This document shows, piece by piece, positions 1 through 44,013 of a stretch of DNA of 64,000 bases; the stretch's first letter is position 1; each line of letters begins with the position of its first letter. The stretch spans positions 147,544 to 211,543 of the forward strand of contig JACRJI010000014.1 of assembly GCA_016235665.1 (NCBI GenBank). Reading direction: 5' to 3'. A program made the translations under genes and the position numbers. The notes beneath the pieces were generated by a model that was not told where the DNA came from, ran no database searches, and was given only the letters and a program-made list of their open reading frames with translations. This DNA comes from a candidate division TA06 bacterium (GTDB lineage Bacteria; Edwardsbacteria; AC1; EtOH8).

Positions 1-243
1 GCTTTCCAGAACATTGTCTTTCTCATGGGGATTATCCTGGCCATGAACATTCCCCTGAATTGTCTCAGATTCAGTGCCGGGTTTTATACGTTTCTGTTCC
101 TGATAGCAGTGATCTGTATTACTTATCTGCCCCAGCAGATTCCGGCGTTGCTCGTTCCACGATATGGGACACAAACCAAGCTGAAATATATCTTGTATGT
201 AGCAATATTGGTCCTCTTTATTATACAACTTATCGTTGGATAG
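1..243 (+). CDS. hypothetical small membrane protein, possibly 5-prime partial (reading frame open to window edge)
   Basis: ORF 25..243 with hydrophobic segments; no in-frame stop between position 1 and the ATG, so it may continue upstream of the window. Confidence 0.25.
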   Translation, partial: AFQNIVFLMGIILAMNIPLNCLRFSAGFYTFLFLIAVICITYLPQQIPALLVPRYGTQTKLKYILYVAILVLFIIQLIVG

Positions 244-634
244 GAGCAGTATAATGAAATACATCAATGATTATTTTAAACCTATCAGCAAAGAAACGAT
301 CTTCAAAAAGCCAAAATCCGTCAGTGATCAAGGCTTTGCAAGCAAAAAAACCGTCATGAAGGAAACGAAGGACGGCATCGAACGGCACGTTGAGGAAAGC
401 ATCCTCCTTTCCGCTTGCGGTGAGGTAATCAAGGAAAGCGAGATCAGCGGACGTTGTGATGTTTGTGGCGGATACACTTGCCCAAAGCACATCTACCATT
501 GCCAGGCATGTCAAAAGACGTTATGCCTTCGGGATGTCCGGTTCTTAAAGGACAATGAAAACGAAAGCGCGTACTGCCCCGAACATTATACTATTGCTGT
601 ATATAACTATGACACCTGGACACGTCGCAAATAA
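236..634 (+). CDS. Cys-rich zinc-ribbon protein (CxxC...CxxC...CP), first gene of island operon
   Basis: C-terminal CDVCGG...CPKH...CQACQ...CPEH cysteine pairs; directly upstream of and coupled to the ATPase gene. Confidence 0.4.
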   Translation: MDRSSIMKYINDYFKPISKETIFKKPKSVSDQGFASKKTVMKETKDGIERHVEESILLSACGEVIKESEISGRCDVCGGYTCPKHIYHCQACQKTLCLRDVRFLKDNENESAYCPEHYTIAVYNYDTWTRRK

Positions 635-660
635 CGAAGCAATATAACTGGTTATTTATA

Positions 661-2358
661 ATGCTACTTTCTGAAAGAAAATCAACGTTCGATTCGGATC
701 CTTGCCTGCAGGCTGCTCTCCACATCATGGAACTGGCAAGGCAGACAGGTACAGAACGTGAGCTTTTCATCCTGCAGGCCCTAAAAGTGATCCGGGCATT
801 TCCGCAAAACCTCGGACTGATCCAGGGGTATGTCAGGAGCGTGGAGCGGAGGCTTTTGCCAAAGTTGATCAATGAAAAGTATCAAAGCCAGGTGCCGGAT
901 TCAAGGGTTTTTGGCGGGAATATCCACCTGGGAAATGTAGTTGAGAACAATGTTCCCGCCAGGATCACGACGGGACAGCTTAACCAGAACATCCTGATTT
1001 ATGGGAGGACAGGATCAGGCAAGTCGAATTTCAATATGCATGTTATCCCCCAGATTGCAGGGCTTGGGATAAAATGTGAAATATTTGATTTCAAACGGGA
1101 GTACCGGGACCTTTGGACATTACAGGATTGCCAGCCCATGATAGTACTCAATACCAGCAATGACAAATACAACCCGCTGGAACCAGTCGGGAATCCCAAG
1201 GGGTATAACCAGTTTTTCTGGGACATCTGCCAGCAGGATTTCAACATTCGCCCGGAAACTAAGCAAATGTTGATAATTTGTACCGACGAGTTGTATGCCC
1301 GTTTCGGGGTATACAACAATGGGAAATACTTTCCCACCTTATATGACCTCTATGATTACCTTAAAGAGAAGGCTGAAACGGCCAATCCCAAGATATTCAG
1401 GGGAATGGAAGTGATTCTGTCGATAATAAACCGGCTGGGCGCTATGGTTGATTGCAGTTCGGGATATGACCTCTCCGGTTTTAAAACGGTGTGCTATGAG
1501 GTGGATAACCTGAGTGAGGATTTAAGGTCCTGGATTATGAAACTGAGATTAAAAAAAAGCTACGAACAGGGTCTGAAATACAATCAACGGAATATATTGA
1601 GAAAAATTCTGGTTTTCGACGAGGCGAAGATGGTTTTTGGACAGAGCCGGATCGGGGAAGCGACCAACTATTTTAAGGATGCCATTACCCAGCAACGGGC
1701 ATTGGGTACCGGACTGCTTATTTCCGACCAGAACCCGTCGGAGTTGGCCGACTTCATCAGGAATAATGTCTATGGACAGGTCTGTTTTCATCTGGTCCAT
1801 CCTAAGGAAAGGCGGAACGCCGCACAATCTTTGGGTGGCACCGAGGACTTTGAATTGAAGATTGCGCGTTTGGCAATTCCCAACGCATATATTTCTCTGG
1901 GGCATTACCCGTACCCATTCCTGATGAGAATACCCAAAAGCAGGGTAACCTGGCATATCGGGGATGGAGAATTTGATCGTCTTATGCAGCCGGTAATATC
2001 CAGATTACAGTATATCCCCAGATACAAACCCGTTAAACCCGCTATTGTAATAACCCCAAAAGTCAACATACCGGAGAAACCAGCCAGCATTCCCAAAACA
2101 GACTCTACCGGAGATCTGTTTGAGCAATGGATAAATCTTTTAAAACATATTAAGGCGAATCCTGAAGACAATGTTTCGAAAATATACGATAAGCTGGGGT
2201 TGTCCAGAAGGAAGGGCAATTTGATCAAGGAACAGCTTTTGGAAAATTGTTTGATTGAAGAGGAGGTTGTCCATACCAAGGAGAGGAAACGGCCCCAAAA
2301 GCGACTAAAGCTCACTCTAAAGGGGGAGGAATATGTCAAAAGGCAAAGGCGGGCCTGA
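661..2358 (+). CDS. FtsK/HerA/VirB4-superfamily P-loop NTPase (DUF87-like)
   Basis: Walker A ILIYGRTGSGKS; Walker B hydrophobic run ILVFDEAKM; downstream LLISDQNPSEL sensor-like segment; 565 aa. Confidence 0.6.
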   Translation: MLLSERKSTFDSDPCLQAALHIMELARQTGTERELFILQALKVIRAFPQNLGLIQGYVRSVERRLLPKLINEKYQSQVPDSRVFGGNIHLGNVVENNVPARITTGQLNQNILIYGRTGSGKSNFNMHVIPQIAGLGIKCEIFDFKREYRDLWTLQDCQPMIVLNTSNDKYNPLEPVGNPKGYNQFFWDICQQDFNIRPETKQMLIICTDELYARFGVYNNGKYFPTLYDLYDYLKEKAETANPKIFRGMEVILSIINRLGAMVDCSSGYDLSGFKTVCYEVDNLSEDLRSWIMKLRLKKSYEQGLKYNQRNILRKILVFDEAKMVFGQSRIGEATNYFKDAITQQRALGTGLLISDQNPSELADFIRNNVYGQVCFHLVHPKERRNAAQSLGGTEDFELKIARLAIPNAYISLGHYPYPFLMRIPKSRVTWHIGDGEFDRLMQPVISRLQYIPRYKPVKPAIVITPKVNIPEKPASIPKTDSTGDLFEQWINLLKHIKANPEDNVSKIYDKLGLSRRKGNLIKEQLLENCLIEEEVVHTKERKRPQKRLKLTLKGEEYVKRQRRA

Positions 2359-2683
2359 ACACCAAAAGGCACAATGCCTTATAAGGGATTACTACCAGGC
2401 CCGGGGCATGGTGGCCGTTATAGAGGCTTTTCTTGGAAACAAGAATATAGATGTGTTGGTGCAGGATCCAGAGACTGGGCAGATCATAGCCATAGAATAC
2501 CAGACGACGATTAAACATGCTTTGGAGAATGTTCTGCTTGACCATGTTTTTTGTGACGAGGTGATTCTCGTTTCGGCCGATATCCGGGTGCTTGGGCAAA
2601 TGAAGCGGAAGATTGACGGGAACGGGGCAATTAACGGACAAAAAGTAAAATATAGGCTACTCAAGGAGTTTATTCCACAATAA
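2333..2683 (+). CDS. hypothetical 116-aa protein (possible degenerate PD-(D/E)xK-like fold)
   Basis: ORF with GGGGAGG RBS 6 nt upstream, overlaps ATPase stop by 26 nt; IDVLVQDPETGQIIAIEYQ resembles YraN-like nuclease core but is not diagnostic. Confidence 0.35.
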   Translation: MSKGKGGPEHQKAQCLIRDYYQARGMVAVIEAFLGNKNIDVLVQDPETGQIIAIEYQTTIKHALENVLLDHVFCDEVILVSADIRVLGQMKRKIDGNGAINGQKVKYRLLKEFIPQ

Positions 2684-2771
2684 TGGTAATCTGGTCAGTA
2701 GTAATAACCCGGAATAAAATATGGAATTTAACCAACGGACTAAAATCCCAAAACGAAAGGAGGTGAACAGT

Positions 2772-3512
2772 ATGCAAAGAAAAACAATATCCCTGATTGT
2801 GGCAGGCAGTGGGGTGATCAAAGACCTGGCGATTTCTCCGGAAACGACGGTCCATGACATCATCAATCAGAACGGACTATCTGGCTATGCTCTGTCCAAG
2901 GGCAACGAACAGAGTCTCAGTCAGGAGGATAACATCTTCAATTCGGTCATGGATGGCGACGAGGTCTATGCATCGCCGGAGGATGTTTCTGTAGGCAGAC
3001 AACCCCCTGCCTCCCCCTTCGGGGGGAAACCGTCCTTCCAGTTTGAAAAGATAACTGGCATCCGGCAAACGGTAACCCACTCAGGAGTGACGGAGACCCG
3101 CAAGGTGGAGGTGGTCCGGACTAGAACGTATGATAAGACCCTATTTCTCAAAAAGCGGTCAGGGCTGCCCTATTGGATGAAGGCCGGTTGGTTTCAGACA
3201 AATGATGGATACAATGGGTGGTACCGGACTAAATACGGAAGTTGGAAGGGTTATATCCATCGGGATTATCAGGATTCCTACTCGTATTTCATCATCGATC
3301 CTCCGAGTGAAGTAAAAAATGGATCCCATGGAGCTTGTTTTTCCCACCGGGGAAACGGTAAATATCAAGTGCATTTTAGTGTCAAGCCGACGGATATCGG
3401 GGATGGTATTCTAACGGTTGAGAGACTTATTAGCGAATCATTCGGTCAAAAGAACCACAAGGCACATAGAGGAGGCTTTATATCATGTTTACGAAAACTG
3501 GGGCTTTTGTGA
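2772..3512 (+). CDS. ubiquitin-like (beta-grasp) domain protein fused through an FGG motif to a ~160-aa C-terminal domain
   Basis: N-terminal KTISLIVAGSGVIKDLAISPETTVHDII...DGDEVYA matches the ThiS/MoaD/ubiquitin beta-grasp pattern; linker RQPPASPFGG then C-terminal domain; strong AAAGGAGG RBS before ATG 2772. Confidence 0.55.
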   Translation: MQRKTISLIVAGSGVIKDLAISPETTVHDIINQNGLSGYALSKGNEQSLSQEDNIFNSVMDGDEVYASPEDVSVGRQPPASPFGGKPSFQFEKITGIRQTVTHSGVTETRKVEVVRTRTYDKTLFLKKRSGLPYWMKAGWFQTNDGYNGWYRTKYGSWKGYIHRDYQDSYSYFIIDPPSEVKNGSHGACFSHRGNGKYQVHFSVKPTDIGDGILTVERLISESFGQKNHKAHRGGFISCLRKLGLL

Positions 3513-3541
3513 TGAGGTTTCAATGACAGCGGAGAAGGAAG

Positions 3542-4168
3542 ATGATTGAGCAGCAGATTGAGGCCCATATCACATTGTTAAAGGTAAAAGTAATTGCTCA
3601 CAGCGTTGTGGAGGTAAAAAACCTATGTGCTTCCATTTTAGACCTGCTGGAGCTTCACCGGATAGCGGCCAAGTATGGTTCGGTTGAGGACGAAAAAAGG
3701 ATTGTTTTTATAATTCCATCGCTTTTCCTACGGGATTGTTTAGATTACTTGAGGCAACAGGAGGAGGAATCGCTTCATTTCGTAACCGGAGTCCATATAG
3801 ATAATATTGTGATCCTTGACCGGCTTGTCAAACTGGAATTTGAAAAGCAGACTGTTGTCTTTGCCAAGGCTGATTCTACTTCGGTTAAAAATGCCTTGCT
3901 GGAACTGACGAGAAACGGTTATCGGCTTTTTGCATACTTTCATATCCATCCGGGCACCGGAGAACCAGCCACGCATCCTTCAAGTATCGATAAAAAGCTT
4001 GATGAGCTGTTGCAACGCGGAAAATATCAGGCAGTCGGTGCGATATTTAGTAGGGATGGTTACGCGCGGTTCTTCACCGACGGCAATTATGAAGTCCAAA
4101 TATACGGAAGGGGGGTGCAACAGATTGATGATAGAACTTTTAAGGTCGTTGAACCGGCCAAAACATAA
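3542..4168 (+). CDS. JAB/MPN (JAMM) metallo-isopeptidase
   Basis: JAMM-type motif FHIHPGTGEPATHPSSID (HxH...S..D); 208 aa; between Ubl and E1 genes. Confidence 0.7.
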   Translation: MIEQQIEAHITLLKVKVIAHSVVEVKNLCASILDLLELHRIAAKYGSVEDEKRIVFIIPSLFLRDCLDYLRQQEEESLHFVTGVHIDNIVILDRLVKLEFEKQTVVFAKADSTSVKNALLELTRNGYRLFAYFHIHPGTGEPATHPSSIDKKLDELLQRGKYQAVGAIFSRDGYARFFTDGNYEVQIYGRGVQQIDDRTFKVVEPAKT

Positions 4169-4187
4169 GACTTTTCATACCCCAGGC

Positions 4188-4934
4188 ATGGCCATGAGGT
4201 GTGAAGAAGACCGCAGGAATCTGACGGCCAGACAGGAAGTCGTTTTAGGTTTTGACCAGAATGTTATGAAAAGATTGTCCATATTGCAGATTGGAGCAGG
4301 TGGGCTTGGTGGAGAGATATGCCAGGGGTTGGTCCGAAAAGGCGTAGGGACCGTGAAGGTATTTGACGGGGATGTCGTCGAGCCATCAAACCTAACGCGA
4401 CAGAGGTTTTATCCAAAAGACCTTTACAGGAATAAGGCGTTGTCATTGGCTGGCAATCTTATGAAAGAGGCGATCATTAAAACTGAAATTATTGCTTATC
4501 CTTTCATGTTCCAACGGGCATTGGAGGAGGGGATGAATATGGATTGTGATATCGTGATTTGCGCCCCGGACAATGACGAAGTCCGGCGTTTTACGGCGAA
4601 GTATTTTCTCAATAAAGTGCCGGTTATATTTACGGGATTGGACCGGAAGGCAAATACCGGCTATGTTTTCATTCAGGAACCGGGCAAAGCTTGTTTCGAG
4701 TGTGCGATACCGTCTGCAAAAAGGAATAAAAGAGAACCGTGCCCGAATACTCCGGCAGTCATTGACTTGGTCAAGATCATTTCAGGTTTGGTCCTTTTTG
4801 CGGTTGATTCGACGGTAATGCATAGAAAACGAAACTGGAACTACAGACAAATATTCCTCTGCGGGTATATCCCCGAAATTATATGGACGGTTAAAAGAAG
4901 TAATAAATGTCAGATTTGCGGTACCAAATGGTAA
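4188..4934 (+). CDS. E1-like ubiquitin-activating / ThiF-MoeB family adenylyltransferase (minimal, ~249 aa)
   Basis: Rossmann ILQIGAGGLGGEICQGLVRKGVG, then FDGDVVEPSNLTRQ (E1/ThiF signature), CFEC...CQIC zinc pairs; start chosen 20 nt after JAB stop rather than the overlapping ATG 3930. Confidence 0.8.
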   Translation: MAMRCEEDRRNLTARQEVVLGFDQNVMKRLSILQIGAGGLGGEICQGLVRKGVGTVKVFDGDVVEPSNLTRQRFYPKDLYRNKALSLAGNLMKEAIIKTEIIAYPFMFQRALEEGMNMDCDIVICAPDNDEVRRFTAKYFLNKVPVIFTGLDRKANTGYVFIQEPGKACFECAIPSAKRNKREPCPNTPAVIDLVKIISGLVLFAVDSTVMHRKRNWNYRQIFLCGYIPEIIWTVKRSNKCQICGTKW

Positions 4935-5015: not shown

Positions 5016-5516
5016 ATGAAACCGCCATTAAGACAGGGAAGTGCGAATGACTTTCAGACACCAGCCCAAGCATTGCACCCGTTATACCAATATTTGAAAA
5101 AAGATTGGACAATATGGGAGTGTGCCCAGGGTAAGGGGAATATTGTCAGAGAATTACGGGCACGAGGGTGGAAAGTAATAGGCACAGATATATTAGATGG
5201 TCATGATTATTTATCTTATCTGCCGTCGAGATTCAATTGTATGATTACTAATCCTCCATATAGCATCAAGCAGCTGTTTTTAGAACGTGCATATTCTCTG
5301 CAAAAACCTTTTGCGTTTCTCTTGCCCTTGACCACATTTGAAACGAGAAAGCGACAGTATCTTTTTGAAAAATACGGGTTGGAGGTGATATTTTTCGATA
5401 AACGAATAAATTTTGAAACACCGAGCGGGAGAGGAACGGGAGCCTGGTTTGCGACGGCGTGGTTTACATGGGGTCTGAACATTGGCAAACAAATGACGTT
5501 TTGTAAATATGAATAA
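5016..5516 (+). CDS. small DNA methyltransferase, probably N6-adenine (phage Dam-like), NPPY motif
   Basis: ITNPPYS catalytic motif IV; 166 aa, size typical of phage orphan MTases. Confidence 0.6.
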   Translation: MKPPLRQGSANDFQTPAQALHPLYQYLKKDWTIWECAQGKGNIVRELRARGWKVIGTDILDGHDYLSYLPSRFNCMITNPPYSIKQLFLERAYSLQKPFAFLLPLTTFETRKRQYLFEKYGLEVIFFDKRINFETPSGRGTGAWFATAWFTWGLNIGKQMTFCKYE

Positions 5517-5733
5517 AGTGCGTACAATGGATCAACTAATTGACATAATAACCTTATCAAAACTCTTGAGCGTCAAGCCGATGACCATATATGGTTGGAT
5601 ACACGAGGGTGTAATTCCATATATCAAGCTTGGCCGGCTGGTGCGTTTCAGTGAAAAGGAAGTTCAAGCCTGGCTTAACAAGAAGAAACGAGAGGGACAA
5701 CCAGTAAAAGCAACGGATATAGATTTAACTTAA
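5509..5733 (+). CDS. AlpA/Xis-family helix-turn-helix excisionase-like DNA-binding protein
   Basis: LLSVKPMTIYGWIHEGVIPYIKLGRLVRFSEKEVQAWL matches excisionase/AlpA HTH pattern; immediately upstream of the integrase. Confidence 0.7.
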   Translation: MNKVRTMDQLIDIITLSKLLSVKPMTIYGWIHEGVIPYIKLGRLVRFSEKEVQAWLNKKKREGQPVKATDIDLT

Positions 5734-5802: not shown

Positions 5803-6861
5803 ATGCGTATATATAAAAGAAATGAGATTTGGTATTTGGACTACAATTATAAAGGCAAGCGATATCGTAAACGCGTCGGTAAATCCCAGAAAATGGCAGA
5901 ACTGGCACTTAAGAACATTGAGGTGAAAATTGTTAAAAAAGAGCATCTCGGCGTACAGGACGACAAAAAGATACTATTCGAGGATTTTACGACAAAATAT
6001 CTCGACTACGCCAAAGTAAACAAGTCCCCTAAATCATATTACCTCAACATAGGTAATATGAAAGCCATGCTGCCGTTTTTCAAAGGGAAATATCTATCCG
6101 AGATCACCCCTCAGGACATCGAGAGATATAAAGCAGAACGATCTTCGACGGTAAAACCAGCTACCCTTAACAGGGATCTTGCCTGCCTGCGGCATATGCT
6201 CAATAAAGCCATCGAGTGGGGATACCAACAGGTGAATCCGATGAAAGGGGTAAAACTCCTGAAGGAGCCTCCGGGGAGGTTGCGTTTCTTGTCCGAGGAG
6301 GAAATCAAAATACTACTGCATGAGTTGCCAGCAGGCTCAAAACTCATCGTACTGGTCGCGATGTACACCGGGATGAGAAGGTCTGAAATCCTCAATCTCA
6401 ATTGGAGCAATGTGGATTTGAAGAACAGGATCCTTGTCGTCGAGAAAACCAAGACCAATGAGCGGAGAATCATCCCTATCAACGATGGTTTGTATTCTCA
6501 GCTACATGAACTGTCCACAAGGAAAAAGAGCGAATTGGTATTTGCCGAATGTAGGATCAATTTACGGAGGAACTTCACAGATGCTTTGAAGAGGGCAAAT
6601 ATCAGAAATTTCAGATTTCACGACCTTCGCCACACCTTCGCGAGCTATCTTGTAATGAGCGGAGCCAGTATCAAAGTGGTCCAGCAGCTTCTCGGCCATA
6701 AGGATTTGAAAATGACGATGAGATATTCGCACCTTTCAAACGAACACCTCCAGGAAGCTGTTGGAAAGTTAAATTACACAAAACAGGATAAGATAGAACC
6801 GCAAACAGTAAGAGAAACCAGGAGCCGATATAAGTACAATCATATTATGTCCCTAAGGTAA
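5803..6861 (+). CDS. int: tyrosine site-specific integrase (phage integrase family)
   Basis: C-terminal HDLRHTFASYLV...LLGHKDLKMTMRYSHL catalytic box; N-terminal arm-type WYLDY..GKRYRKR; RBS AAGGAGGG before ATG 5803. Confidence 0.9.
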   Translation: MRIYKRNEIWYLDYNYKGKRYRKRVGKSQKMAELALKNIEVKIVKKEHLGVQDDKKILFEDFTTKYLDYAKVNKSPKSYYLNIGNMKAMLPFFKGKYLSEITPQDIERYKAERSSTVKPATLNRDLACLRHMLNKAIEWGYQQVNPMKGVKLLKEPPGRLRFLSEEEIKILLHELPAGSKLIVLVAMYTGMRRSEILNLNWSNVDLKNRILVVEKTKTNERRIIPINDGLYSQLHELSTRKKSELVFAECRINLRRNFTDALKRANIRNFRFHDLRHTFASYLVMSGASIKVVQQLLGHKDLKMTMRYSHLSNEHLQEAVGKLNYTKQDKIEPQTVRETRSRYKYNHIMSLR

Positions 6862-7790: not shown

Positions 7791-8462
7791 GTGATTTATA
7801 TGAGAAAAAGCATAAAACATAAGTATTCATCTCTACTTATCATTGAATGCGATTCAAATAAACTTCAGAGACAAAACATTGATATAGCAAGTAAGATTAA
7901 CGACCTTTTTCAAAAATTACCATTTTGTAAGCACAAATACATTCGTACGTTTGAGAAATCAGATTTATGCTTAAAAATAAATGAAATCTCTAAAGAACAT
8001 TACGATATTATTGTTTTAACAGGCCATACTTTTACTGATGGAGGGGGTAGGCCTGTCCGTTTCGATTTTGCAAGTGACTATAAACCAGAATTATCAGTCT
8101 TACCTTCTTTTTTAAATACATTTAAACCTAAATGTTTGATTATGGCTTCGTGTAAGGGGTCTCATTTTATTACCACGGATGTGATGTTTAATGGGATGCC
8201 AACACTAAAAGAAATATATGGCTCTCCGGTTTTGACAAATTCAAAACAACTTCAAATATTATTACTATTGATACCATATATTATATTCAGCGATAAATAT
8301 GATGACGGCATTTTATTTTTAAGCAATATTGTTAATTTTGTACAATCTGGAGGATATATTGTTAGGCATACACGTGCGGAATTTATAAATAAAAGACCGA
8401 TTAAATATATTCAACAAGAAATGTATGATTCTCTAAAAAGTATTTTAAGTAATAGTCATTAA
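7791..8462 (+). CDS. caspase-like (peptidase C14/CHAT-type) protein
   Basis: IIVLTGHTFTDGGG (His-Gly) and KPKCLIMASCKGS (compare caspase KPKLFFIQACRG) about 42 aa apart, matching caspase His/Cys dyad spacing. Confidence 0.5.
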   Translation: MIYMRKSIKHKYSSLLIIECDSNKLQRQNIDIASKINDLFQKLPFCKHKYIRTFEKSDLCLKINEISKEHYDIIVLTGHTFTDGGGRPVRFDFASDYKPELSVLPSFLNTFKPKCLIMASCKGSHFITTDVMFNGMPTLKEIYGSPVLTNSKQLQILLLLIPYIIFSDKYDDGILFLSNIVNFVQSGGYIVRHTRAEFINKRPIKYIQQEMYDSLKSILSNSH

Positions 8463-8478
8463 TAAAGGCACAACACAT

Positions 8479-9267
8479 ATGGCACATTATAGATATAATT
8501 CTCTAGAAGATTATTTAATATCTCAGCCCCTAACGGTTGATGGTGTTTTGGATGATGGATGGGGTGCCTCGTTTCCAGTTAAAGGGCGTGAAGTAGAGGC
8601 AACAATATTATTTTCTGACATTTCGTCATTCACTCGACGCACTCTTGATTTAACCCCTACGGAAACATTAATATTTGTCAACAATTTTTTCTCATGGATT
8701 ACAGCTGAAGCTTTAAGGGATAAACCAGCGATTATTGACAAGTATGTCGGTGATGAGATGATGATTGTATTTTCAAATGAGTTTGGGTCTAAAGATCATT
8801 TTGTCGATGCTATTCAAACCGCAAGGTGGATGGGAGAATATGACATACTTGATTTCCGTCCTCACATAGGAATAGCAAGTGGCCCCGTTATTATTGGCTA
8901 TGTTGGTACACCTGTTAAATATAATTGTTCTGTATTTGGTCATACCGTCGCATTAGCGAAGAGGTGTGCAGGGGTGAAAATGAGCGATACTAGTCCATAT
9001 ATGGTTTTCCCGACACGATCATGGCAGGGTCGTTCGTTTGAAGAAATAATTCCACTTGTGAAAATGAAGAAATCGGAAAGTGAATTTGTTGAATTACCAC
9101 AAAGCTGGAAATTAGCCCCAAGTCGTAAAGTCAGCTTAAACAATATTGGTGATGTTGACGTAATGGGCATTATAAATATGTTATTAACAGAACCATCACA
9201 GTCCGCAGTGGAAAGAGCAAAAGAATCGTTAACTATTCTTAAAGCCAATGGCAGTTGCAGACAATAA
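8479..9267 (+). CDS. stand-alone class III nucleotidyl cyclase (adenylyl/guanylyl-cyclase catalytic domain)
   Basis: ATILFSDISSFT (metal Asp), KYVGDEMMIVF (second Asp), RPHIGIASGPVIIGYVG, YNCSVFGHTVALAKR (Asn/Arg transition-state residues); only ~45-aa N-terminal extension. Confidence 0.7.
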   Translation: MAHYRYNSLEDYLISQPLTVDGVLDDGWGASFPVKGREVEATILFSDISSFTRRTLDLTPTETLIFVNNFFSWITAEALRDKPAIIDKYVGDEMMIVFSNEFGSKDHFVDAIQTARWMGEYDILDFRPHIGIASGPVIIGYVGTPVKYNCSVFGHTVALAKRCAGVKMSDTSPYMVFPTRSWQGRSFEEIIPLVKMKKSESEFVELPQSWKLAPSRKVSLNNIGDVDVMGIINMLLTEPSQSAVERAKESLTILKANGSCRQ

Positions 9268-9745: not shown

Positions 9746-10102
9746 GGGGGCGACAGGTTTCGACGGTAAAGAAAGGGTTTAAGTGGCATGCCGAGAAAGT
9801 CAGAGGGCTCGTTAAAATACTGGCAACGTCATAATTGACACTTACAACTACGCTCTGGCAGCTTAATTTTAGCTGCCATGCCGCTGCAGGTCCCCGCCTA
9901 TCGGATCTGCAAACGGCATCGCAAAGATGGGCTGGTCCGAGACGCCCGGCCCGGGCATTTCGGATGAGATCTTAGGGCTGCTCTCTTAAGGGATCGTGTT
10001 TGTGCGAGACTTTTAGGGAAAAGACCAAAACACAAAACAAGCATGTAGAGGCTTAGGTTCTTACCTTATCGGACGTGGGTTCAATTCCCACCGCCTCCAC
10101 CA
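9746..10102 (+). ncRNA. ssrA: tmRNA (SsrA), one-piece
   Basis: 5-prime GGGGGCGACAGGTTTCGACGG; 3-prime GGACGTGGGTTCAATTCCCACCGCCTCCACCA; acceptor GGGGGCG/CGCCUCC pairs; tag ORF ending ...AAC TAC GCT CTG GCA GCT TAA (NYALAA*). Confidence 0.9.
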
Positions 10103-33981: not shown

Positions 33982-34173
33982 ATGATCAAGAAACTTTACC
34001 GTTCCCGGGACAATAGAATGGCCGGAGGGGTCTGCGCCGGACTGGCCAAGTACTTTGAACTGGACCCCACATTGGTCCGGCTGGGAATGGCGGTCCTGAT
34101 GGTGCTGGGCGGAGGGATACTGATCTACATCATCGCCTGGCTGATAGTGCCAGAGGAACCAACGGTACAATGA
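33982..34173 (+). CDS. PspC-domain protein
   Basis: LYRSRDNRMAGGVCAGLAKYFELDPTLVRL matches PspC domain. Confidence 0.7.
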   Translation: MIKKLYRSRDNRMAGGVCAGLAKYFELDPTLVRLGMAVLMVLGGGILIYIIAWLIVPEEPTVQ

Positions 34174-34929
34174 ACTATTAGCCCTACAACGCTCTGCCTA
34201 TGCCAAGGCTTCCTCCTACGCAACTGCTGCGGCGGACATGTTGGCAGACATGCATAGCTTCGCCGGACAAGCAATTGACAATTAGCAGGAACCCCGGAGC
34301 CTGAGATATCAGGTCCGGGGTTTTGTGTTTTTAAATCCAAATGATTATCCCATTCGCTCAGGAATAATTTATGGGATCAATTATTGGACACGGGCTTCGA
34401 TAAGGTTTCGATAAACTCAACCCGGCGCCTCAGCCGAACGATTTACACGGATTTATTGAATATATCTGCGAAAATCGGTAATAATCAGCGTGTATCTGCG
34501 TTCCGGTTGGTTTTTGGTTAGGCTTCCTGAAGGAATGGGATAGTCATTTAACCCGAATAACACATAGGTCCCCCAAAACATAATTCCTAAAATAACTTGA
34601 CATTTATCCTGGTTTGGTAGTATCATACTTTTCAATAAATGTAAAAACAGATTTGTTCACTCGTCATATACACTCTGTATATAAAAATGTTTAACCAAAC
34701 ATTAAACATACAATGTTCTGGCATGCATTTTGCCAGACCAGACCAAAGATCTGAGTCGTTACCGACAGAAAACAATGACCTAAAGTATAAGGTCCCGTCT
34801 TGCTTCGCATCAGGAAGCAGGGCGGGGCTTTTTGTTTAACATTTCATTTTTTACACCTTAGAAAACGAGAAAATATTGATTACTGACATCCTGCGGGGCG
34901 CACACTCCGTTCTGCGCCCCGCAGAGAAG

Positions 34930-35060
34930 ATCATCAATGCCACAGAGAACAACCCGCATGTTACAGAGGCTTTTGTCAATGCCGCATGGACCTTTCCGCA
35001 TACCACAGAAATGATCGTCAATGTCACAGAGAGGAAACCGCATAATGCAGAACAGGCACA
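34930..35060 (+). repeat. three tandem ~42-bp direct repeats (TCAATGYCACAGAGA..AAACCGCAT..) in the ~1-kb leader upstream of the RHS gene
   Basis: seen in sequence; antisense translation shows repeated LCxIDD..CG units. Confidence 0.5.
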
Positions 35061-35217
35061 TATGATGTATCGAAGACACAGTGCTTCTGAAACCGCTTGC
35101 TCTCATTAATCACACGGTCACCCATACCAAAAAGGCAGTTGTGCTGCAGATGGAATTGTTGAAAATATTAACATGGGGAACTAAATAACAAAATCATATA
35201 AAGGAGTAAATTACAAA

Positions 35218-38200
35218 ATGAACAATCATATCAATTTAAATAATAGACATATATATATTCTGATCTTAGTCGGTTTATTAAATTTGCTCTTGCCTTTAAC
35301 AGCTTTTGGCTGGGGGACATATAGTGTTACAGGTTGCGGGAATGTAATTCTATCACCTGGTGATGTTTACCAAGGTGGATCAACTGCTTATGCTAATTCA
35401 TATGAAAGCGATCTGCAAGATTGGTTGGGAGCTACATATGACGGCAGATATTCTTTTGTTGAGCAAACGCCCTATGTCCAGGATTATTTAGGTAATAAAT
35501 TACATTTCAGGAAAGGTGCTTCCGATTCAACAATGGTAGCCTCCAACAATGGCACAGCATACTGTGCTTTTACTGTTTCCCTTGATCCAGACTATTCTGG
35601 CGAAGACGTATCTGTATATCTGTATTTAATGCGGGCTACAACACAAATAGTTTCTGTTGCGAGGTTCTTTATAAAAGGGAAAAAACATCCAAAATGTGAC
35701 ATGGTAGGAAATCCAGTATCTGCCTATTATGGTAACAAACAAATAAATGAGATTGATATCAGCAAAAATGATTTAATGTTAAATCGGCAATATGGACGCA
35801 GAATAATATCTATAACCGATACCGGTAAACCTTGGAACAGACCTTTTGCTGCAACCAATTGGAACCATAATTGGAATAAATACATTTATAAGGCAACAAG
35901 TAATGACACAATAATTTTAATGAATGGTACAGAGGGTGCGAGCAAATTCATTCGGGTTGCCGGGAGCACGAATTATAAATCCGAACGGCAGGGTATGGGC
36001 TACTTAGACAGCATACCCGGTGGCGGGTGGAACTTGAATATATCTGATGGTAGTCGTTACCGGTTTAATATATATGGCAGTTTGGACAGCCTTTTATTAA
36101 AGAATGGTAATTATTATAGGCTTTGGCATACTGCAGATAGCACATATCTGGACAGTATAACAAACATGACGAATGATAGACTGAAATTCCGGTATAATAT
36201 TGCCAATAGATTGGCAAGAGTGTTTTATGATTCGACCCAGAATTTCATTGAGTATAGATATGACAGTACCATTACTGGTTGGTCAATTAGTCAAGTATTG
36301 ATGCATTATAGTCCAAGTGATTCTGTGAAAGTAATCAGCAGGTATTACTATGATGGGTATGTTCCAAATTATGTGGGAGCCGGTAACATATCTGTATATC
36401 AAAAAGGGTATAATTATTCAGATACTATTTATACTAACAATCGTAACAAAGGTGATCGTACAATCTGTTGGTATGATTCAACCTATAGGGGACGCGTTTC
36501 ATACCAGGAGGTAGTACATGGTGACAACGACACCGGCCATGTGGATGACGAAGTGACATACAGGGCATACTTCAAATATTATTTTGGTACTGGCACGACC
36601 GGTTACGACAGCACTAAGGTATACTATTGGGAAGACCAACCATTTACCGGAGCCCATGATCCGGCGGATACCTCTTTCAAACCCAAGGATAGCCTTTCAG
36701 CCTGGACCGATAACGAAAAGTATTTTATCCGAACGCTGATTTTCAACAAGGACGGCACCAAATACAAGGATATGACCTATAGTCCCATTACCGGGATTAC
36801 TGTTACTACAAAAGATACGCTTTATGACAAAGATTACAATCCCGGCTTGGTTATAGGCTCCAACAATGACAGCACTAAATATTATTATTCACACTACCAT
36901 AACCCCGGCGATACCACCACTCGCTACTGGCCCAGCCCCACCAAGATAAAATACCCCAACGGCGACTCCGTTCTCACCTACTTCTCGGCCAAGGGCGACA
37001 GCAACTACCGCCTGCCGGATTCCACCATTGACGAGGCGGGCAAAAGGACCTGCCACTATTACGATGCTTCCAACAATTACGTGGACACGGCCACGGTTTA
37101 CAAAAACAGGGTACTGGCCGACGGCGAGGGCAGCAGCCACGATGTCAGTCAAAGATACCACTATAATAGTAAGGGCAACCTGACCGAAACCCTGGATCTC
37201 CTGGGTCACAAGACCATAATGCATTACACCGATTCCGACACCGGGCAATACCTGATTGAACAAAGAATAGACATGGGGACTGCCGGGGAAGGGAACGAGG
37301 ACATCGTCACCCAATACGGCTACAATCTTACCCAGGGGACTATGGACACCATGACGTTCTACCGGGATTATCCCAACGACCCCAGCCGGACGTTCTATAC
37401 TTATGACGTCAACAAGCGGTTGGTTAAGACTGTATATCCTGATACTTCAGTTGATTCCATGACCTATGACCTGCGGGGCAATCTGCTGGAAAAGATAACC
37501 CAAAAGTCGTACACTCTGCTTTACAAGGCCATATACGAGTATGACCCGCACGATCATCTAACCAAGCTTAAGGAATACAAGGATCCTCAGAACTCGCCGA
37601 ACGATTACGATTCCACCGTGTATACTTACAACCTGCACGACAGGTTGATCTCCCAAACCAACGCCTTGGGGCAGACCACATATTATAACTACTGCATGGA
37701 CCGGTTAGTGAAAACCACCTACCCCGATGATACCTACGACAGCCTGGGTTATTGGGCCGGGGGCGATCTTAAGTTCAAATTAGACCGCAAAGGGCAGGTG
37801 ACGTATTACCAGTACGATGGCTATAACGGCGGTTGCGGGTGCATGTCTTCCAGCCGTTCCAGATTGGCTAAGAAGTATTATTATGATAGCTTGGACCAAT
37901 ACCAAAACGGTTTTGCCTATCCTTCGGATTCCGTGATCTACGATTACGACCAGGTTGGCAACCGCACAAAAATGGTTGACAAAAACGGGACTACGATGTA
38001 TTCTTATGACGATATGAACCGGCTGTGGAGCGACTCCTGCGGCTACCTGAACACCAAGAACCGGTACCAGTATGATATGGCTGGCAACCGGACGAAACTG
38101 AATGTTTACCAGGGCAATGATACCACCGTCTGCTACCTGGATCAAAACTACGACAATTACGATGCGGCCAATAGGGTGGGCCTGACAATTGCCTCGGGCG

Positions 38201-39603
38201 ACACTTTTGATCTTAGTTACTGGGACACCGGCACGCCCAAGGAGGTGCAATACCCCAACGGGGCCAAAGAGGTTTACGGGCTAAATGTTCGTGGACAGCT
38301 TGACTCCATAGCCACCACGTTAGGCGATACCTTGACCTGGTTCAAACACAGCTACGGGTACAACGGCCTGGGGGACAGGGAATGGCAATACATTTACCAA
38401 ACCCGGCCGGAGGTGTCCACATTATCCGATACCTTTAAATATGGCTACGACGGATTGCGGCGGCTGACTACTGCCATATACCCGCCCAGCACCAACAGCG
38501 GTGATACTGTAACCTACGTTTACGACGCTGTGGGAAATAGGCTGGAGAAACAGAGCATGGTCAATGGAACCACTACTTATACCATTGACAACTTGACCAA
38601 CCGTATGGCCCAGGCAAATAACATTTATTTTACTTATGACAGCAGCGGCAACTGGACCCGTAAGGCGCACGATACCGACGAAGGATTAGTGACGGACATC
38701 ATTTTCACGTATGATCATGAGAACCGGCTGGTAGACGCCCGTGGCCCCGGCTATAATCCATACTATATGACCACGTATTACAATGGCGATGGTGTTAGAT
38801 TAGCCAAGAGCACCAATGCTGACGCCGAAAAGCGGTATGCGTATGACGGCATGAACACGGTAGTGGAGCAGGATGCCAGCGGTTACTTAAGGTACAAGTA
38901 TGTTTATGTCAACGGAATGCTGTTGTCCCGCATTGACGGTAGTGATAATAAGTATTATTACCACAGAGACGGGTTGGGTTCAATAATTGGCGTAAGTAAT
39001 AGCACACCTGAAATTACCACTGCGCAATTGTTTGATGAGTTTGGCAATTGGCTGTACTTTGACAGTGATTGGGACTATTATGGCTATACGGGCCAGGAGT
39101 ACGACTGGACGCTGATGGATGCGGTGAACCTAAGGGCCAGGGAGTATTACCCGGAATATGGCAGGTTCATGCAGGAGGATCCGATAGGGGACCAAGGGGG
39201 ATTAAATTGGTATGGTTATACCGGGAACAATCCGGTAAATTACATTGATCCGAAGGGATTAGAAGGTTCATATGGTGGATGGATGTTAATTTGGCCACCT
39301 ACTTTAAGGTATGGCATTGGCGGTGGTATTATGTATTACTATTATCAGCAAATGATTAAAATGAATTGGAAAGGAGCTGATGCATATTTTCATTGTCTCG
39401 GATCTTGTGAAGCAGCTAAATGGGCAGGACCCTATACAAGCTTATACTGGGGTGTTTTCAGAGAACTAACCGATGAAATACGTGGAAAAGGTTGGTCTGG
39501 TGAAGATATTAAAAGTAATATACAAGGTATCAATTGTCCATTAAGCCAGACATGTAAGGAAAAATGTAAACCGCTGGTACCTAAAGGCATGCCACTAGAT
39601 TAA
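35218..39603 (+). CDS. RHS/YD-repeat polymorphic toxin, 1461 aa, with C-terminal toxin tip after DPxGL
   Basis: signal peptide; dozens of YD repeats (YDxxGN/R); RHS core end EDPIGDQGGLNWYGYTGNNPVNYIDPKGL followed by ~115-aa AT-rich Cys-containing tip. Confidence 0.9.
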   Translation: MNNHINLNNRHIYILILVGLLNLLLPLTAFGWGTYSVTGCGNVILSPGDVYQGGSTAYANSYESDLQDWLGATYDGRYSFVEQTPYVQDYLGNKLHFRKGASDSTMVASNNGTAYCAFTVSLDPDYSGEDVSVYLYLMRATTQIVSVARFFIKGKKHPKCDMVGNPVSAYYGNKQINEIDISKNDLMLNRQYGRRIISITDTGKPWNRPFAATNWNHNWNKYIYKATSNDTIILMNGTEGASKFIRVAGSTNYKSERQGMGYLDSIPGGGWNLNISDGSRYRFNIYGSLDSLLLKNGNYYRLWHTADSTYLDSITNMTNDRLKFRYNIANRLARVFYDSTQNFIEYRYDSTITGWSISQVLMHYSPSDSVKVISRYYYDGYVPNYVGAGNISVYQKGYNYSDTIYTNNRNKGDRTICWYDSTYRGRVSYQEVVHGDNDTGHVDDEVTYRAYFKYYFGTGTTGYDSTKVYYWEDQPFTGAHDPADTSFKPKDSLSAWTDNEKYFIRTLIFNKDGTKYKDMTYSPITGITVTTKDTLYDKDYNPGLVIGSNNDSTKYYYSHYHNPGDTTTRYWPSPTKIKYPNGDSVLTYFSAKGDSNYRLPDSTIDEAGKRTCHYYDASNNYVDTATVYKNRVLADGEGSSHDVSQRYHYNSKGNLTETLDLLGHKTIMHYTDSDTGQYLIEQRIDMGTAGEGNEDIVTQYGYNLTQGTMDTMTFYRDYPNDPSRTFYTYDVNKRLVKTVYPDTSVDSMTYDLRGNLLEKITQKSYTLLYKAIYEYDPHDHLTKLKEYKDPQNSPNDYDSTVYTYNLHDRLISQTNALGQTTYYNYCMDRLVKTTYPDDTYDSLGYWAGGDLKFKLDRKGQVTYYQYDGYNGGCGCMSSSRSRLAKKYYYDSLDQYQNGFAYPSDSVIYDYDQVGNRTKMVDKNGTTMYSYDDMNRLWSDSCGYLNTKNRYQYDMAGNRTKLNVYQGNDTTVCYLDQNYDNYDAANRVGLTIASGDTFDLSYWDTGTPKEVQYPNGAKEVYGLNVRGQLDSIATTLGDTLTWFKHSYGYNGLGDREWQYIYQTRPEVSTLSDTFKYGYDGLRRLTTAIYPPSTNSGDTVTYVYDAVGNRLEKQSMVNGTTTYTIDNLTNRMAQANNIYFTYDSSGNWTRKAHDTDEGLVTDIIFTYDHENRLVDARGPGYNPYYMTTYYNGDGVRLAKSTNADAEKRYAYDGMNTVVEQDASGYLRYKYVYVNGMLLSRIDGSDNKYYYHRDGLGSIIGVSNSTPEITTAQLFDEFGNWLYFDSDWDYYGYTGQEYDWTLMDAVNLRAREYYPEYGRFMQEDPIGDQGGLNWYGYTGNNPVNYIDPKGLEGSYGGWMLIWPPTLRYGIGGGIMYYYYQQMIKMNWKGADAYFHCLGSCEAAKWAGPYTSLYWGVFRELTDEIRGKGWSGEDIKSNIQGINCPLSQTCKEKCKPLVPKGMPLD

Positions 39604-39615
39604 GAAAGGTTTAAA

Positions 39616-40047
39616 ATGAAGATATTAAAAATTACATTTTTAACGGTTGTTTTAACGATCACCGCTTTCATCATCATTAGGCAACCTTGGCAAAAAAATG
39701 TAATGGTTTTATCTCAACCATTACTTCAAAACAATCAAACAATTGAATTATGGGAAAAACCATATCATAATATCTTTAGCATGGAGTATACAACATGGTT
39801 TGTATTTAATAATAACGGAAATAGGACTTGGCATTTGATTGATGACAAATATATTTCCTTTGGCACAGTTTCGTTATTCGTATCAAACAACAACGATACA
39901 ATTAGAGTTGAAACAACTGGAGCAGCTACACCTCTTCATTTAATTGCACAGTATAGTTTATCTGATAAAAATTTTGTTGCAAGAAGTGAAGAAACTGTTA
40001 GTAATAAAGCAGGATGGAAATTGCTTAGATCATTAAAAATAAGATAA
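39616..40047 (+). CDS. putative cognate immunity protein (TM/secreted, 143 aa)
   Basis: immediately downstream of toxin tip; AT-rich like the tip; followed by hairpin CTGCCCCGCC-TAAT-GGCGGGGCAG. Confidence 0.5.
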   Translation: MKILKITFLTVVLTITAFIIIRQPWQKNVMVLSQPLLQNNQTIELWEKPYHNIFSMEYTTWFVFNNNGNRTWHLIDDKYISFGTVSLFVSNNNDTIRVETTGAATPLHLIAQYSLSDKNFVARSEETVSNKAGWKLLRSLKIR

Positions 40048-40100
40048 ATAGATGTCTCAACTGCCCCGCCTAATGGCGGGGCAGTGATGGTACTGCTGAA

Positions 40101-41366
40101 AAACCCTACAACGACCTGGGCGACCGCACCAGTCAGTATGTGTACATGACCAGACCCGGCACCACCGCGCTCTCCGGCACGATAAATTACACCTACGATG
40201 GCTTGCGGCGGCTTACTACTGCCATATATCCGCCCAGCACCAACAGCGGGGATACTATAACCTACACCTACGATGCCATGAGCAACCGGACGGCTAAAAC
40301 AAGCGTAAACAACGGAACCACGCCGTATGCCGTTGACGACACTACCAACCGGATGTCCCAGGCTGGGAATTACTATTTTGACTATGACAGCTGCGGAAAC
40401 TGGACCCGCAAGTGGCATACAACAGACGAAGGTTCGGTAGTTGATATTTATTTTAGTTACGACTACGAGAACCGTCTGACGGACGCCCGGGGGCCTGGAG
40501 GCGATCCGTATTACATGACGAACACGTATAACGGAGACGGAGTTAGACTATCTAAGGCCACCAACGCCGACCTCGAGAAGCGTTATGTGTATGACGGCAT
40601 GAACACCGTGGTGGAGCAGGATGCCAGTGGTTACTTAAGGTACAAATATGTTTACGTGAACGGAATGCTGTTATCGCGTATAGATGCCAGCGATAATAAG
40701 AGCTACTACCACCATGATGGTTTGGGGTCAATTATTGGCGTAAGCAACAGCGCACCGGAAATACTCACAGCTCAATTGTTTGATGAGTTCGGCAACTGGC
40801 TGTATTTTGATAGTGATTGGGATTATTACGGCTACACGGGCCAGGAGTATGATTGGACGCTGATGGATGCGGTGAACCTTAGGGCAAGAGAATACTATCC
40901 TGAGTACGGCAGGTTTATGCAGGAGGACCCGATAGGCAATAGGGGCGGGAGCTTGAATTGGTATTTGTATGTGGCAAATAATCCGATTAATGCTGTTGAT
41001 TTACATGGCTTATATATTATTGACAACAGTTATGATAAGTATTTGAGACAGAAGTTATTGACGACGCAGGGTATAGCATTAATGAGGGCAACAATAACTG
41101 CTAATCCTTGTTGTGTCGGTGGACAAAATAATGTAGATAAAATATTGGCTGCATTACATAATAGTATTTTTATATACAATGATGTTGAATCAACATATCG
41201 GGCTTCATGTCAATATAATAATATCACTTTCACAAGAGAAACATTTGACTCTAGGTCTGGTATTGTTGCTTCATCGGTATTGCACGAACTTACCCATATG
41301 GCGTTTCGTGTTTCATCGGAATATTTACCCAAGAAATATGAAGCAGATTGTTTCGGGTATAAATAA
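40101..41366 (+). CDS. orphan RHS C-terminal cassette (no canonical start) ending in a different toxin tip with HELTH motif
   Basis: in-frame homology to parent gene begins right after the 40058-40082 hairpin (YNDLGDR..YTYDGLRRLTTAIYPPSTNSGDT); DPIGNRGGSLNWYLYVANNPINAVDLHGL then novel tip with HELTHM. Confidence 0.7.
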   Translation, partial: KPYNDLGDRTSQYVYMTRPGTTALSGTINYTYDGLRRLTTAIYPPSTNSGDTITYTYDAMSNRTAKTSVNNGTTPYAVDDTTNRMSQAGNYYFDYDSCGNWTRKWHTTDEGSVVDIYFSYDYENRLTDARGPGGDPYYMTNTYNGDGVRLSKATNADLEKRYVYDGMNTVVEQDASGYLRYKYVYVNGMLLSRIDASDNKSYYHHDGLGSIIGVSNSAPEILTAQLFDEFGNWLYFDSDWDYYGYTGQEYDWTLMDAVNLRAREYYPEYGRFMQEDPIGNRGGSLNWYLYVANNPINAVDLHGLYIIDNSYDKYLRQKLLTTQGIALMRATITANPCCVGGQNNVDKILAALHNSIFIYNDVESTYRASCQYNNITFTRETFDSRSGIVASSVLHELTHMAFRVSSEYLPKKYEADCFGYK

Positions 41367-41386
41367 TTAATTGAAAGGGAAAGAAA

Positions 41387-41890
41387 ATGCATAAAAATAT
41401 TCTAATAGCGATAGTGGCAATATTGTTATCTTGCACAAAATATGGTATATCAAGTAATGATAAAAATATTATTTACGGTTTAGTTATAAGTGATCAAAAA
41501 AGTATTCATGCACAAGAGATGCCTACGTTTAATATAAAAAAAATATATGTTAATATTCTCGGCTGTGACCCAAACAATGAATTGGTTGAATATTTAAAGC
41601 AAAATAATGCGATTGATATAGTGCCTGCATCGAAGAGCATTAATGTTTACCACGACCCAGTGAAGTTTGATTATTATAAAAACCCAATTTCAGTGAGGAG
41701 TAAAAGCAATAACGAAAATGGCATTATATTTGAGATAAAAAGTATTAAAAAGGAACCTAAAACAGGGATAATAACTGTTAACTTATTCTATTATGCGGGG
41801 CCTTTATTCGCGGGTAATTATGAGTATTTAATAGATAAAAACGATAAAGAATGGTATATTGTAAAAAGAAGCATTGGCGAAATATCATAA
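41387..41890 (+). CDS. putative immunity lipoprotein for orphan cassette 1
   Basis: signal/lipobox-like N-terminus; AT-rich; followed by perfect palindrome CCAGACCCGCCCTTAAGGGGCGGGTCTGG. Confidence 0.45.
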   Translation: MHKNILIAIVAILLSCTKYGISSNDKNIIYGLVISDQKSIHAQEMPTFNIKKIYVNILGCDPNNELVEYLKQNNAIDIVPASKSINVYHDPVKFDYYKNPISVRSKSNNENGIIFEIKSIKKEPKTGIITVNLFYYAGPLFAGNYEYLIDKNDKEWYIVKRSIGEIS

Positions 41891-41938
41891 TGATGTGAAC
41901 CAGACCCGCCCTTAAGGGGCGGGTCTGGTTCTTACAGC

Positions 41939-42739: not shown

Positions 42740-42747
42740 AAAGGAGA

Positions 42748-43173: not shown

Positions 43174-43269
43174 TGCACAATAAGATTTTCCACGACGAAG
43201 CCCCGCCGATTGGCGGGGCTTTTACGTTTGGTGGTATTTAGGCCCGGCTGTTCTTGTCCGCCGTAGTTT

Positions 43270-43996: not shown

Positions 43997-44013
43997 ACTT
44001 GGCCAAATGCCTG

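Follow-up and report, generated by a model that had tools for sequence, protein, structure and literature searches.

Ubiquitin-like (Ubl) systems, such as CBASS Cap2/3, Bil and Bub, and HerA-effector systems are two active topics in phage defence that have so far been kept separate. In the HerA-effector complexes Sir2-HerA and DUF4297-HerA, and in archaeal NurA-HerA, the gene of a HerA-clade ATPase lies beside a small effector gene. In Type I Bub, the JAB peptidase cuts a fusion of Ubl and partner after a conserved glycine, as shown experimentally (PMC11601596), and a small metal-binding protein has been noted in 6e operons (PMC11601596; PMC1779556). In type VII secretion, the Ubl protein YukD/EsaB occurs with the FtsK-like ATPase EssC/EccC and membrane partners (PMC1779556). 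The DNA analysed here is a stretch of 64,000 nucleotides (nt) from a candidate division TA06 bacterium (contig JACRJI010000014.1, positions 147,544 to 211,543), referred to as the window. At its left end, the window carries a cassette of seven genes, TM4–ZnR–ATPase–nuclease–Ubl-X–JAB–E1, in which a HerA-type ATPase and a small nuclease stand next to a Ubl precursor, a JAB protease and an E1-like enzyme (Table 1). A preliminary description, made from the sequence alone, had singled out the zinc-finger protein (ZnR), the ATPase and an open reading frame (ORF) of 116 amino acids (aa), which form the front half of this cassette. It did not take in the conserved upstream gene for a protein with four transmembrane (TM) helices (TM4), and it missed the nuclease identity of the small ORF and the mobile-element setting. 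Its author did not recognise the pairing of a HerA-type ATPase with Ubl, E1 and JAB genes, and the literature agrees: the pairing is not described in Iyer et al. 2006, in the Bub and Bil papers, in recent comparative-genomic surveys or in what full-text searches returned, a coverage that is incomplete and in which absence is not proof.

The order TM4–ZnR–ATPase–116-aa ORF–Ubl-X–JAB–E1 was found in 18 independent loci, and the cassette ORFs are therefore real genes rather than chance ORFs. An alignment of the ATPase family served as query against collections of genomes and metagenomes, and contigs with homologues of the 116-aa ORF or of the Ubl protein were then added. Across the cassette loci, the ATPase is 33–66% identical to that of the window. 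The hosts include TA06, Edwardsbacteria, Ignavibacteria, Omnitrophota and others, and homologues of the 116-aa ORF are also found in Planctomycetota and Thermodesulfobacteriota. The preliminary description had left it to other genomes whether the linkage of the ATPase to the Ubl genes is conserved; of 20 distinct loci reaching far enough downstream, 18 keep the Ubl, JAB and E1 genes, and this holds in several phyla. The same cassette is reached from the ATPase, the nuclease or Ubl-X as starting query. As the searches from the Ubl side arrive at the same cassette, the choice of query does not account for the linkage. Pairwise divergence correlates as strongly between the two blocks (ATPase–JAB 0.76, ATPase–E1 0.72) as inside them (ATPase–nuclease 0.70, JAB–E1 0.73), which points to a long joint descent of both blocks, with the qualification that the locus pairs are not independent and the values are indicative only.

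Each half of the cassette resembles a known kind of system, one the HerA-effector pairs and the other the Ubl/E1/JAB sets of Bub, Bil and CBASS, while the family of domain X is uncharacterised. The likeness to the HerA-effector systems is the gene of a HerA-clade ATPase beside that of a small effector; in the cassette, the two genes overlap and the effector is a nuclease, which is a bare PD-(D/E)xK domain and not NurA, Sir2 or DUF4297. The ATPase itself has a different N-terminal region and, probably, an additional C-terminal winged helix, and TM4, the zinc-finger protein and the Ubl/JAB/E1 block are found in the cassette and not in the known HerA systems. With Type I Bub (6E.1), the cassette shares an N-terminal Ubl fused to a partner, a conserved glycine at the junction, and JAB and E1 alongside. 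However, the JAB and E1 of the cassette are unfused (there is no BubCD) and no cassette protein matches DUF6527/BubE; on these grounds the cassette is not Type I Bub. The partner X is not detectably an E2 by Pfam or hhalign, unlike the Ubl-E2 fusion BubAB, and the HerA–nuclease block is absent from the Bub operons described. Bub is reported to work through oxyesters, without a catalytic cysteine; compared with that account, the cassette has a conserved cysteine both in E1 and in domain X. Bil and CBASS Cap2/Cap3 have in common with the cassette that Ubl or E1-type chemistry is combined with a JAB protein in a mobile, defence-associated operon. Foldseek matches the Bil Ubl structures 8tyx and 8tyz, and the cassette E1 matches the PADLOC Cap2 'E1-E2' models with values up to 1.7e-17. 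In contrast to these systems, the cassette has no recognisable E2 domain and no CD-NTase, and its E1 is a single adenylation domain of ~260 aa, neither tandem nor fused to an E2. In type VII secretion, YukD comes without E1 or JAB and does not undergo conjugation, and the ATPases are of another clade with three P-loop domains; the cassette has no WXG100 substrates but has a nuclease. To our knowledge, this pairing with YukD is the only established co-occurrence of a Ubl with an ATPase of the FtsK/HerA superfamily. DndFGH/DptFGH and MADS, restriction-type systems of several genes that are tied to genes for DNA modification, likewise include an ATPase of this superfamily, but the match to the cassette ATPase is confined to the P-loop core, and the cassette has no other Dnd, Dpt or MADS component.

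The ATPase consists of an N-terminal domain of ~85 residues, the ATPase core, a linker and a C-terminal domain (residues ~490–560). Its assignment to the HerA/FtsK superfamily in the preliminary description stands, as do the two Walker motifs, GRTGSGKS and VFDEAKM, which are conserved in an alignment of 18 ATPase sequences. DUF87 is the sole Pfam match over its cut-off (27.8 bits, cut-off 23.2). In a search of the PDB sequences with the 18-member profile, Sulfolobus HerA (4d2i) is the best match (2.4e-14), starting at residue 89 of the ATPase and spanning residues ~89–175 plus parts of the core; further matches are the NTP hydrolase 8j4u/8su9, DptH (2e-5), YjgR and a HerA-named chain (8xau). 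Among the PADLOC models, mad8 (4.6e-15), several HerA models and DndH (1.2e-7) are matched. The NCBIfam models (HerA, CedD, VirB4-like) all score far under their cut-offs, with HerA_Thermprot and HerA_antiphage at 39.4 and 29 bits against a cut-off of 800 each and ~70 residues around the P-loop matched. The ATPase does not group with the coupling proteins of conjugative transfer. The Pfam models of coupling type remain under their cut-offs (P-loop_TraG 18.9 bits with cut-off 25.8, TrwB_AAD_bind 13 with 20.5, FtsK_SpoIIIE 16.7 with 24), no TraG, TrwB or FtsK chain appears at E<0.01 in the PDB profile search, and the sequence has neither a hydrophobic N-terminus nor a TM segment. Because the profile results favour HerA over TraG, TrwB and FtsK, we regard the ATPase as a family of its own within the HerA part of the superfamily and not as a coupling protein.

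The C-terminus of the ATPase reads KERKRPQKRLKLTLKGEEYVKRQRRA and is basic, from which nucleic-acid binding had been proposed. The binding is plausible, but not through a loose tail; the basic residues are the end of a conserved domain that makes up the last ~70 residues of the alignment. This domain matches the winged-helix model HTH_45 in four of 12 members (best E 9e-4) and also a CARF-associated C-terminal model, and on these weak profile matches it is likely to be a winged helix. More distant relatives of the ATPase (L026–L039, 23–27% identity) were set aside as evidence for the cassette, as they are membrane-anchored proteins of ~430–460 aa that appear to form an archaeal family with housekeeping surroundings. 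Their contigs come from hot-environment metagenomes, and by eye the neighbouring ORFs resemble genes for an XPD-type helicase and TFB-like proteins. In two independent samples (L041, 6136–7895; L042, 853–2612), the ATPase is broken into three consecutive ORFs of 146, 201 and 233 aa with intact neighbours; this could be a pseudogene or an effect of recoding or of an alternative genetic code.

The 116-aa ORF gave little by sequence alone, with a weak match to Pfam CoiA_nuc and nothing significant when its profile was searched against the PDB. The fold was settled only by a structure model, which is confidently a restriction-endonuclease fold and contains the alpha-beta-beta-beta-alpha-beta core. 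The candidate catalytic residues are E31, D40 in strand 2, and E55-x-Q57 in strand 3; E31, D40 and E55 are invariant, as is the nearby K37, and H10 and H62 are also conserved. This nuclease family is not in Pfam, NCBIfam or PADLOC. As previously described, the gene overlaps the end of the ATPase gene by 26 nt and has its own ribosome-binding site (RBS) GGGGGAGG, with AAGGGGGAGGAAT directly before the ATG. An overlap of 11–31 nt is conserved across the loci, and translational coupling of the ATPase and the nuclease, as read from the gene arrangement, is well supported.

The coupling had been thought to extend to the Ubl gene, 38 nt further on. The first ATG of the Ubl ORF (position 2721) is 37 nt after the nuclease stop and has no RBS. 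ATG 2772, 88 nt after the stop, is most likely the start: AAGGAGGTG lies ahead of it, and the protein then begins with MQRKTISL, as do the homologues and the publicly annotated protein (246 aa, P0035). Given this gap of 88 nt and the strong RBS of its own, the Ubl gene is unlikely to be coupled in the window. In some relatives the coupling does hold; in L047 and L049, the end of the nuclease gene and the start of the Ubl-X gene share 17 nt.

In the structure model, the Ubl domain has the beta-grasp fold of ubiquitin. Structure searches with Ubl-X match ubiquitin, ISG15, NEDD8, SUMO and bacterial BilA, and not ThiS or MoaD; Foldseek also matches the Ubl domains of EccD, and one family member weakly matches YukD. 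The domain ends in PEDVSVG75, in which V-x-V-G75 is invariant. The stand-alone Ubl of L010 stops exactly at this glycine, and those of L011 and P0241 stop one to two residues later. The linker to X is variable, poorly conserved and of low confidence in the model. Domain X (~100 residues) has PYW, PP, H186, C189 and H201 as invariants and no match in Pfam or PADLOC. A profile search of the full database gave 955 clusters at 50% identity, many of which are stand-alone proteins of ~130 aa. Some X-domain proteins (P0134, P0152) have an N-terminal TM segment and two copies of X, the first without the His/Cys motif.

JAB and E1 are encoded by separate, overlapping genes in every locus. JAB matches Pfam Prok-JAB weakly (15.9 bits, cut-off 25), and the JAMM motif is conserved in 13 homologues. 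E1 is of the ThiF type in Pfam (1.4e-25; 90.3 bits, cut-off 28.1), whereas in NCBIfam and PADLOC all matches are under the family cut-offs, the best in NCBIfam being ThiF and MoeB. The ATP loop, GAGGLGG, is at residues 57–63, and GAGGLGGEI is invariant in the alignment. Cys206 is conserved after the strand TGY-x-IQ; the CxxC zinc pairs are not kept in the relatives.

The C-terminal domain of ZnR is probably a two-zinc finger. The candidate ligands are C68, C71, C83, C86, C91, D94 (His in the relatives), C108 and H111; six Cys and one Trp are invariant in the alignments, and the position that is Asp in the window protein is His in 90%. With the spacing C-x2-C-x11-C-x2-C-x4-C-x2-H, the first six ligands are placed as in AN1 fingers, and the pattern diverges thereafter. 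Matches to zf-AN1 are sub-threshold (six of 12 members, best E 0.008; 16.7 bits, cut-off 27.9), as are those to the TRIM5 RING (E 0.06) and to the B-box. A role of ZnR as an E3-like factor was considered and down-weighted, as ZnR is retained in L018, where the Ubl block is absent. The gene had been placed at TTG 236, which is unlikely; ATG 254 is most likely the start, being preceded by GGAG and in agreement with the 126-aa gene call in L040, the window's own contig. The 26 nt between the ZnR stop and the ATPase ATG are as reported before and contain no Shine-Dalgarno sequence. In 21 loci (cluster C2), the gene immediately ahead of ZnR encodes a TM4 homologue. The helices of TM4 were called by reading the sequence, and the family search gave no match. 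The full gene is at 2910–3308 of L040, and the window ORF at 25–243 is the C-terminal part only.

The cassette lies in a mobile setting. It is followed by an excisionase-like protein (Xis) and a tyrosine integrase (Int) in the window and in L001, L008, L019 and L045, and by a large serine recombinase instead in L004, L005, L006, L012, L016, L018, L021 and L043. Of the 20 distinct loci that continue beyond the cassette, 13 have a recombinase after it, usually within the next one to three genes (at 3.7 kb in L006); there is none beside the cassette in L003, L010 and L047. The elements are only ~10 kb, with little other content. Such small integrating elements carry the cassette between distant bacterial phyla. 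In the window, the first ~9.7 kb form an island of low G+C (40–45%, compared with 55–60% beyond). On the right, this island ends at a transfer-messenger RNA (tmRNA) gene (9746–10102; tag peptide DTYNYALAA). A classic insertion at the 3' end is not evident, as the island sits on the 5' side of the tmRNA gene, and no convincing attachment-site (att) direct repeats were found in L040, L003, L005, L006 or L012. GenBank phages, PLSDB plasmids and IMG/VR (2.9 million viral contigs) contain no close relatives; the lone match in the GenBank phage collection is 21% identical.

We infer that the cassette is a mobile conflict system that either defends against phages or plasmids or serves its element as an addiction module. 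A HerA–nuclease machine acting on DNA would be combined in it with a minimal Ubl-conjugation module, and we put the chance that this is right at about even. HerA proteins, some of them named as subunits of defence complexes, are nearest to the ATPase, together with DptH/DndH and mad8, and the neighbours are defence-like (methyltransferases, PIN/MazE, KAP NTPase, genes resembling Type I restriction-modification (R-M), a Pycsar-like cyclase in the window); both support a role in conflict, as do the low-G+C island at the start of the window and the cleavage of a Ubl fusion known from Type I Bub. What the analysis shows directly are the fold classes, the conserved residues of catalytic type, the overlaps of genes and their conserved linkage. 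By family resemblance, the ATPase would form a HerA-like ring, bind DNA by its C-terminal winged helix and translocate it. The overlapping genes would give a fixed ratio of nuclease to ATPase, and the nuclease would dock on the ring and cut the DNA that the ring supplies, on the pattern of NurA-HerA and the HerA complexes of defence. TM4 and ZnR might tether or regulate this ATPase–nuclease complex. On the model of Type I Bub and Bil, JAB would cleave Ubl-X after Gly75, and E1 would adenylate the freed glycine and take the Ubl on Cys206. The Ubl would then be passed to a target, perhaps through Cys189 of X. Conjugation could switch the ATPase–nuclease machine on or off, or could mark a protein of the invader, and the DNA methyltransferase, where present, may protect the DNA of the element itself. 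A more specific proposal is that Ubl conjugation directly gates a DNA-degrading machine of HerA ring and nuclease on its own integrating element, and that X is an unrecognised class of Ubl-transfer enzyme without detectable sequence similarity to UBC E2s; we hold this tentatively and consider it rather doubtful.

Several observations weigh against a conflict system of this composition. All cassette components stay under the curated cut-offs of the named defence families in PADLOC and NCBIfam, and a methyltransferase is present in only about half of the loci. The third motif position of the nuclease is Gln57 and not Lys. An E-x-Q variant of the PD-(D/E)xK motif is known in BglII. The AlphaFold 2 model of Ubl-X was built from seven sequences and has a mean predicted local distance difference test score (pLDDT) of 65. 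Domain X has no similarity to canonical E2s (hhalign probability 0.2%), and both structure searches with Ubl-X were dominated by the Ubl domain; the argument for an E2-like role of X is for both reasons one of analogy. In L018 and L019, TM4, ZnR, ATPase and nuclease are present without the Ubl block. Two unrelated genes take its place in L018, and in L019 Xis-Int follows directly after ATPase and nuclease. From these two loci, the ATPase block is a separable unit with a very frequent Ubl partner and no strict need of it. Finally, a constant cassette beside a varying recombinase fits the backbone of an element as well as its cargo.

The last point leads to the rival explanation that survives best, although we think it unlikely. 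The cassette would be the backbone of a new small integrating element, with TM4, ATPase and nuclease moving or processing the element's own DNA (transfer, segregation or uptake) in the manner of TraB of the integrating elements of actinomycetes or of CedB in the DNA import of archaea, and the Ubl genes as accessories. The cassette stays constant while the recombinase type swaps between tyrosine integrase with Xis and large serine recombinase, the ~10-kb elements hold little else, and the position of ATPase and nuclease directly before Xis-Int in L019 would be expected of a backbone. The 4-TM protein always adjoins, the cassette is spread over distant phyla, and the ATPase has weak matches to CedD, CedB and VirB4-like models. 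Its probable C-terminal winged helix has counterparts in FtsK-gamma and TraB. However, the ATPase has no TM segment of its own, its best matches are the HerA proteins of repair and defence rather than TraB, FtsK or TrwB, and the elements have no relaxase, replication initiator or other secretion components. L003, L010 and L047 have no adjoining recombinase, and att repeats are not definable. We know of transfer of double-stranded DNA by a single ATPase only in mycelial actinomycetes, which also counts against such a backbone.

A sulfur-carrier system of the ThiS/ThiF, CysO/Mec or TtuB/TtuC kind is quite improbable. Here a thiocarboxylate on the Ubl would be used, perhaps through X, in modifying DNA, RNA or a small molecule, and the ATPase and nuclease would restrict unmodified DNA much as Dnd/Dpt do. 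The E1 is of the minimal ThiF/MoeB type, X has a conserved set of Cys and His, a radical SAM gene is present in the L043 element, and JAB proteases that expose the C-terminal glycine of sulfur carriers are known. The structure of the Ubl, however, matches ubiquitin-type proteins and BilA and not ThiS or MoaD, and the Ubl is fused to a partner as in the conjugating Bub systems. The cassette has no gene for a cysteine desulfurase or a rhodanese, and the matches of the ATPase to DndH and DptH, which would favour the comparison with Dnd/Dpt, span the generic P-loop core only. That the element is a small provirus or satellite whose ATPase is the genome-packaging motor, as in membrane-containing viruses with packaging ATPases of the FtsK/HerA type, is scarcely credible: a weak match to the packaging NTPase of STIV (B204, E 0.005 in the PDB profile search), the adjoining integrase and excisionase and the adjacent gene for a small membrane protein speak for it, but the known packaging ATPases of this type are less than half as large as the cassette ATPase, the ~10-kb elements have no recognisable capsid or replication genes, and relatives are absent from IMG/VR, with the single 21% match among phages.

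The persistence of both blocks in one cassette across deep divergence suggests that protein tagging and an ATP-driven nuclease hand over to one another. If this is true, the cassette would serve as a simple model, in bacteria, of how a DNA-processing motor comes under ubiquitin-type control, a role would be assigned to the large uncharacterised family of domain X, and a minimal E1/JAB/Ubl set from candidate phyla would inform the origin of ubiquitin signalling. The cassette also offers a compact nuclease–ATPase pair for biochemistry.

Table 1. Genes of the cassette and of the adjoining element in the window (window coordinates)
Feature	Coordinates	Strand	Length (aa)	Characteristics and basis
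TM4, 3' part of gene	1..243	+	132	Four predicted TM helices; 5' end of gene outside window
ZnR	254..634	+	126	Variable N-terminus, conserved central motif, C-terminal Cys-rich domain
HerA-clade P-loop ATPase	661..2358	+	565	Walker A 115-122, Walker B 318-324
Minimal PD-(D/E)xK (restriction-endonuclease-fold) protein	2333..2683	+	116	Structure model and alignments
Ubl-X precursor	2772..3512	+	246	Ubl residues 1-75 (nt 2772-2996), linker, X ~128-228 (nt ~3153-3455)
JAB/JAMM metalloprotease	3542..4168	+	208	Intact motif E76, H134-x-H136, S147, D150
Minimal E1-like adenylating enzyme (ThiF/MoeB family)	4125..4934	+	269	TTG start; Pfam ThiF
Protein with N6-adenine methyltransferase-like motifs	5016..5516	+	166	FQTP, GKG, NPPY read from sequence; no family match
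Excisionase-like HTH_17 protein	5509-5733	+		Pfam HTH_17 9.5e-12
Tyrosine integrase	5740 or 5803 to 6861	+		Pfam Phage_integrase 4e-37

The methyltransferase-like protein that follows E1 in the window is accessory, being absent from the closest relative, L001. Upstream of the cassette, frequent genes across the loci are those for a small helix-turn-helix protein of sigma-70 region 4 and for bona fide N6_N4 or C5 DNA methyltransferases. Other neighbours are PIN/MazE, a KAP NTPase similar to PifA/QatA, the radical SAM gene of the L043 element and genes resembling Type I R-M, the last read from the ORF sequence. After the integrase, and still in the low-G+C island, the window (7791–9267) encodes a 223-aa protein without a family match and then a 262-aa class III nucleotidyl cyclase (Pfam Guanylate_cyc 1e-9; PADLOC PycC 1.2e-5, a weak match); the two may be a Pycsar-like pair of cyclase and effector. 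Two further stretches of the window, ~34000–44000 and ~58000–60000, have low G+C (41–46%) amid 54–60% and may be additional islands. In L002, ~3 kb upstream of the cassette, a second and unrelated ATPase with DUF87/HerA_C (689 aa) is encoded with a 186-aa partner on the − strand (2035–4104); a further system of HerA type may thus share the island with the cassette. In L040, a protein of 670 aa that has TPR-like repeats and, at its C-terminus, a Trans_reg_C winged helix is encoded upstream of TM4 (101–2113), at the place where other loci have the small sigma-70 region 4 protein instead. Between this gene and TM4 lies a divergently oriented gene for a 216-aa protein.

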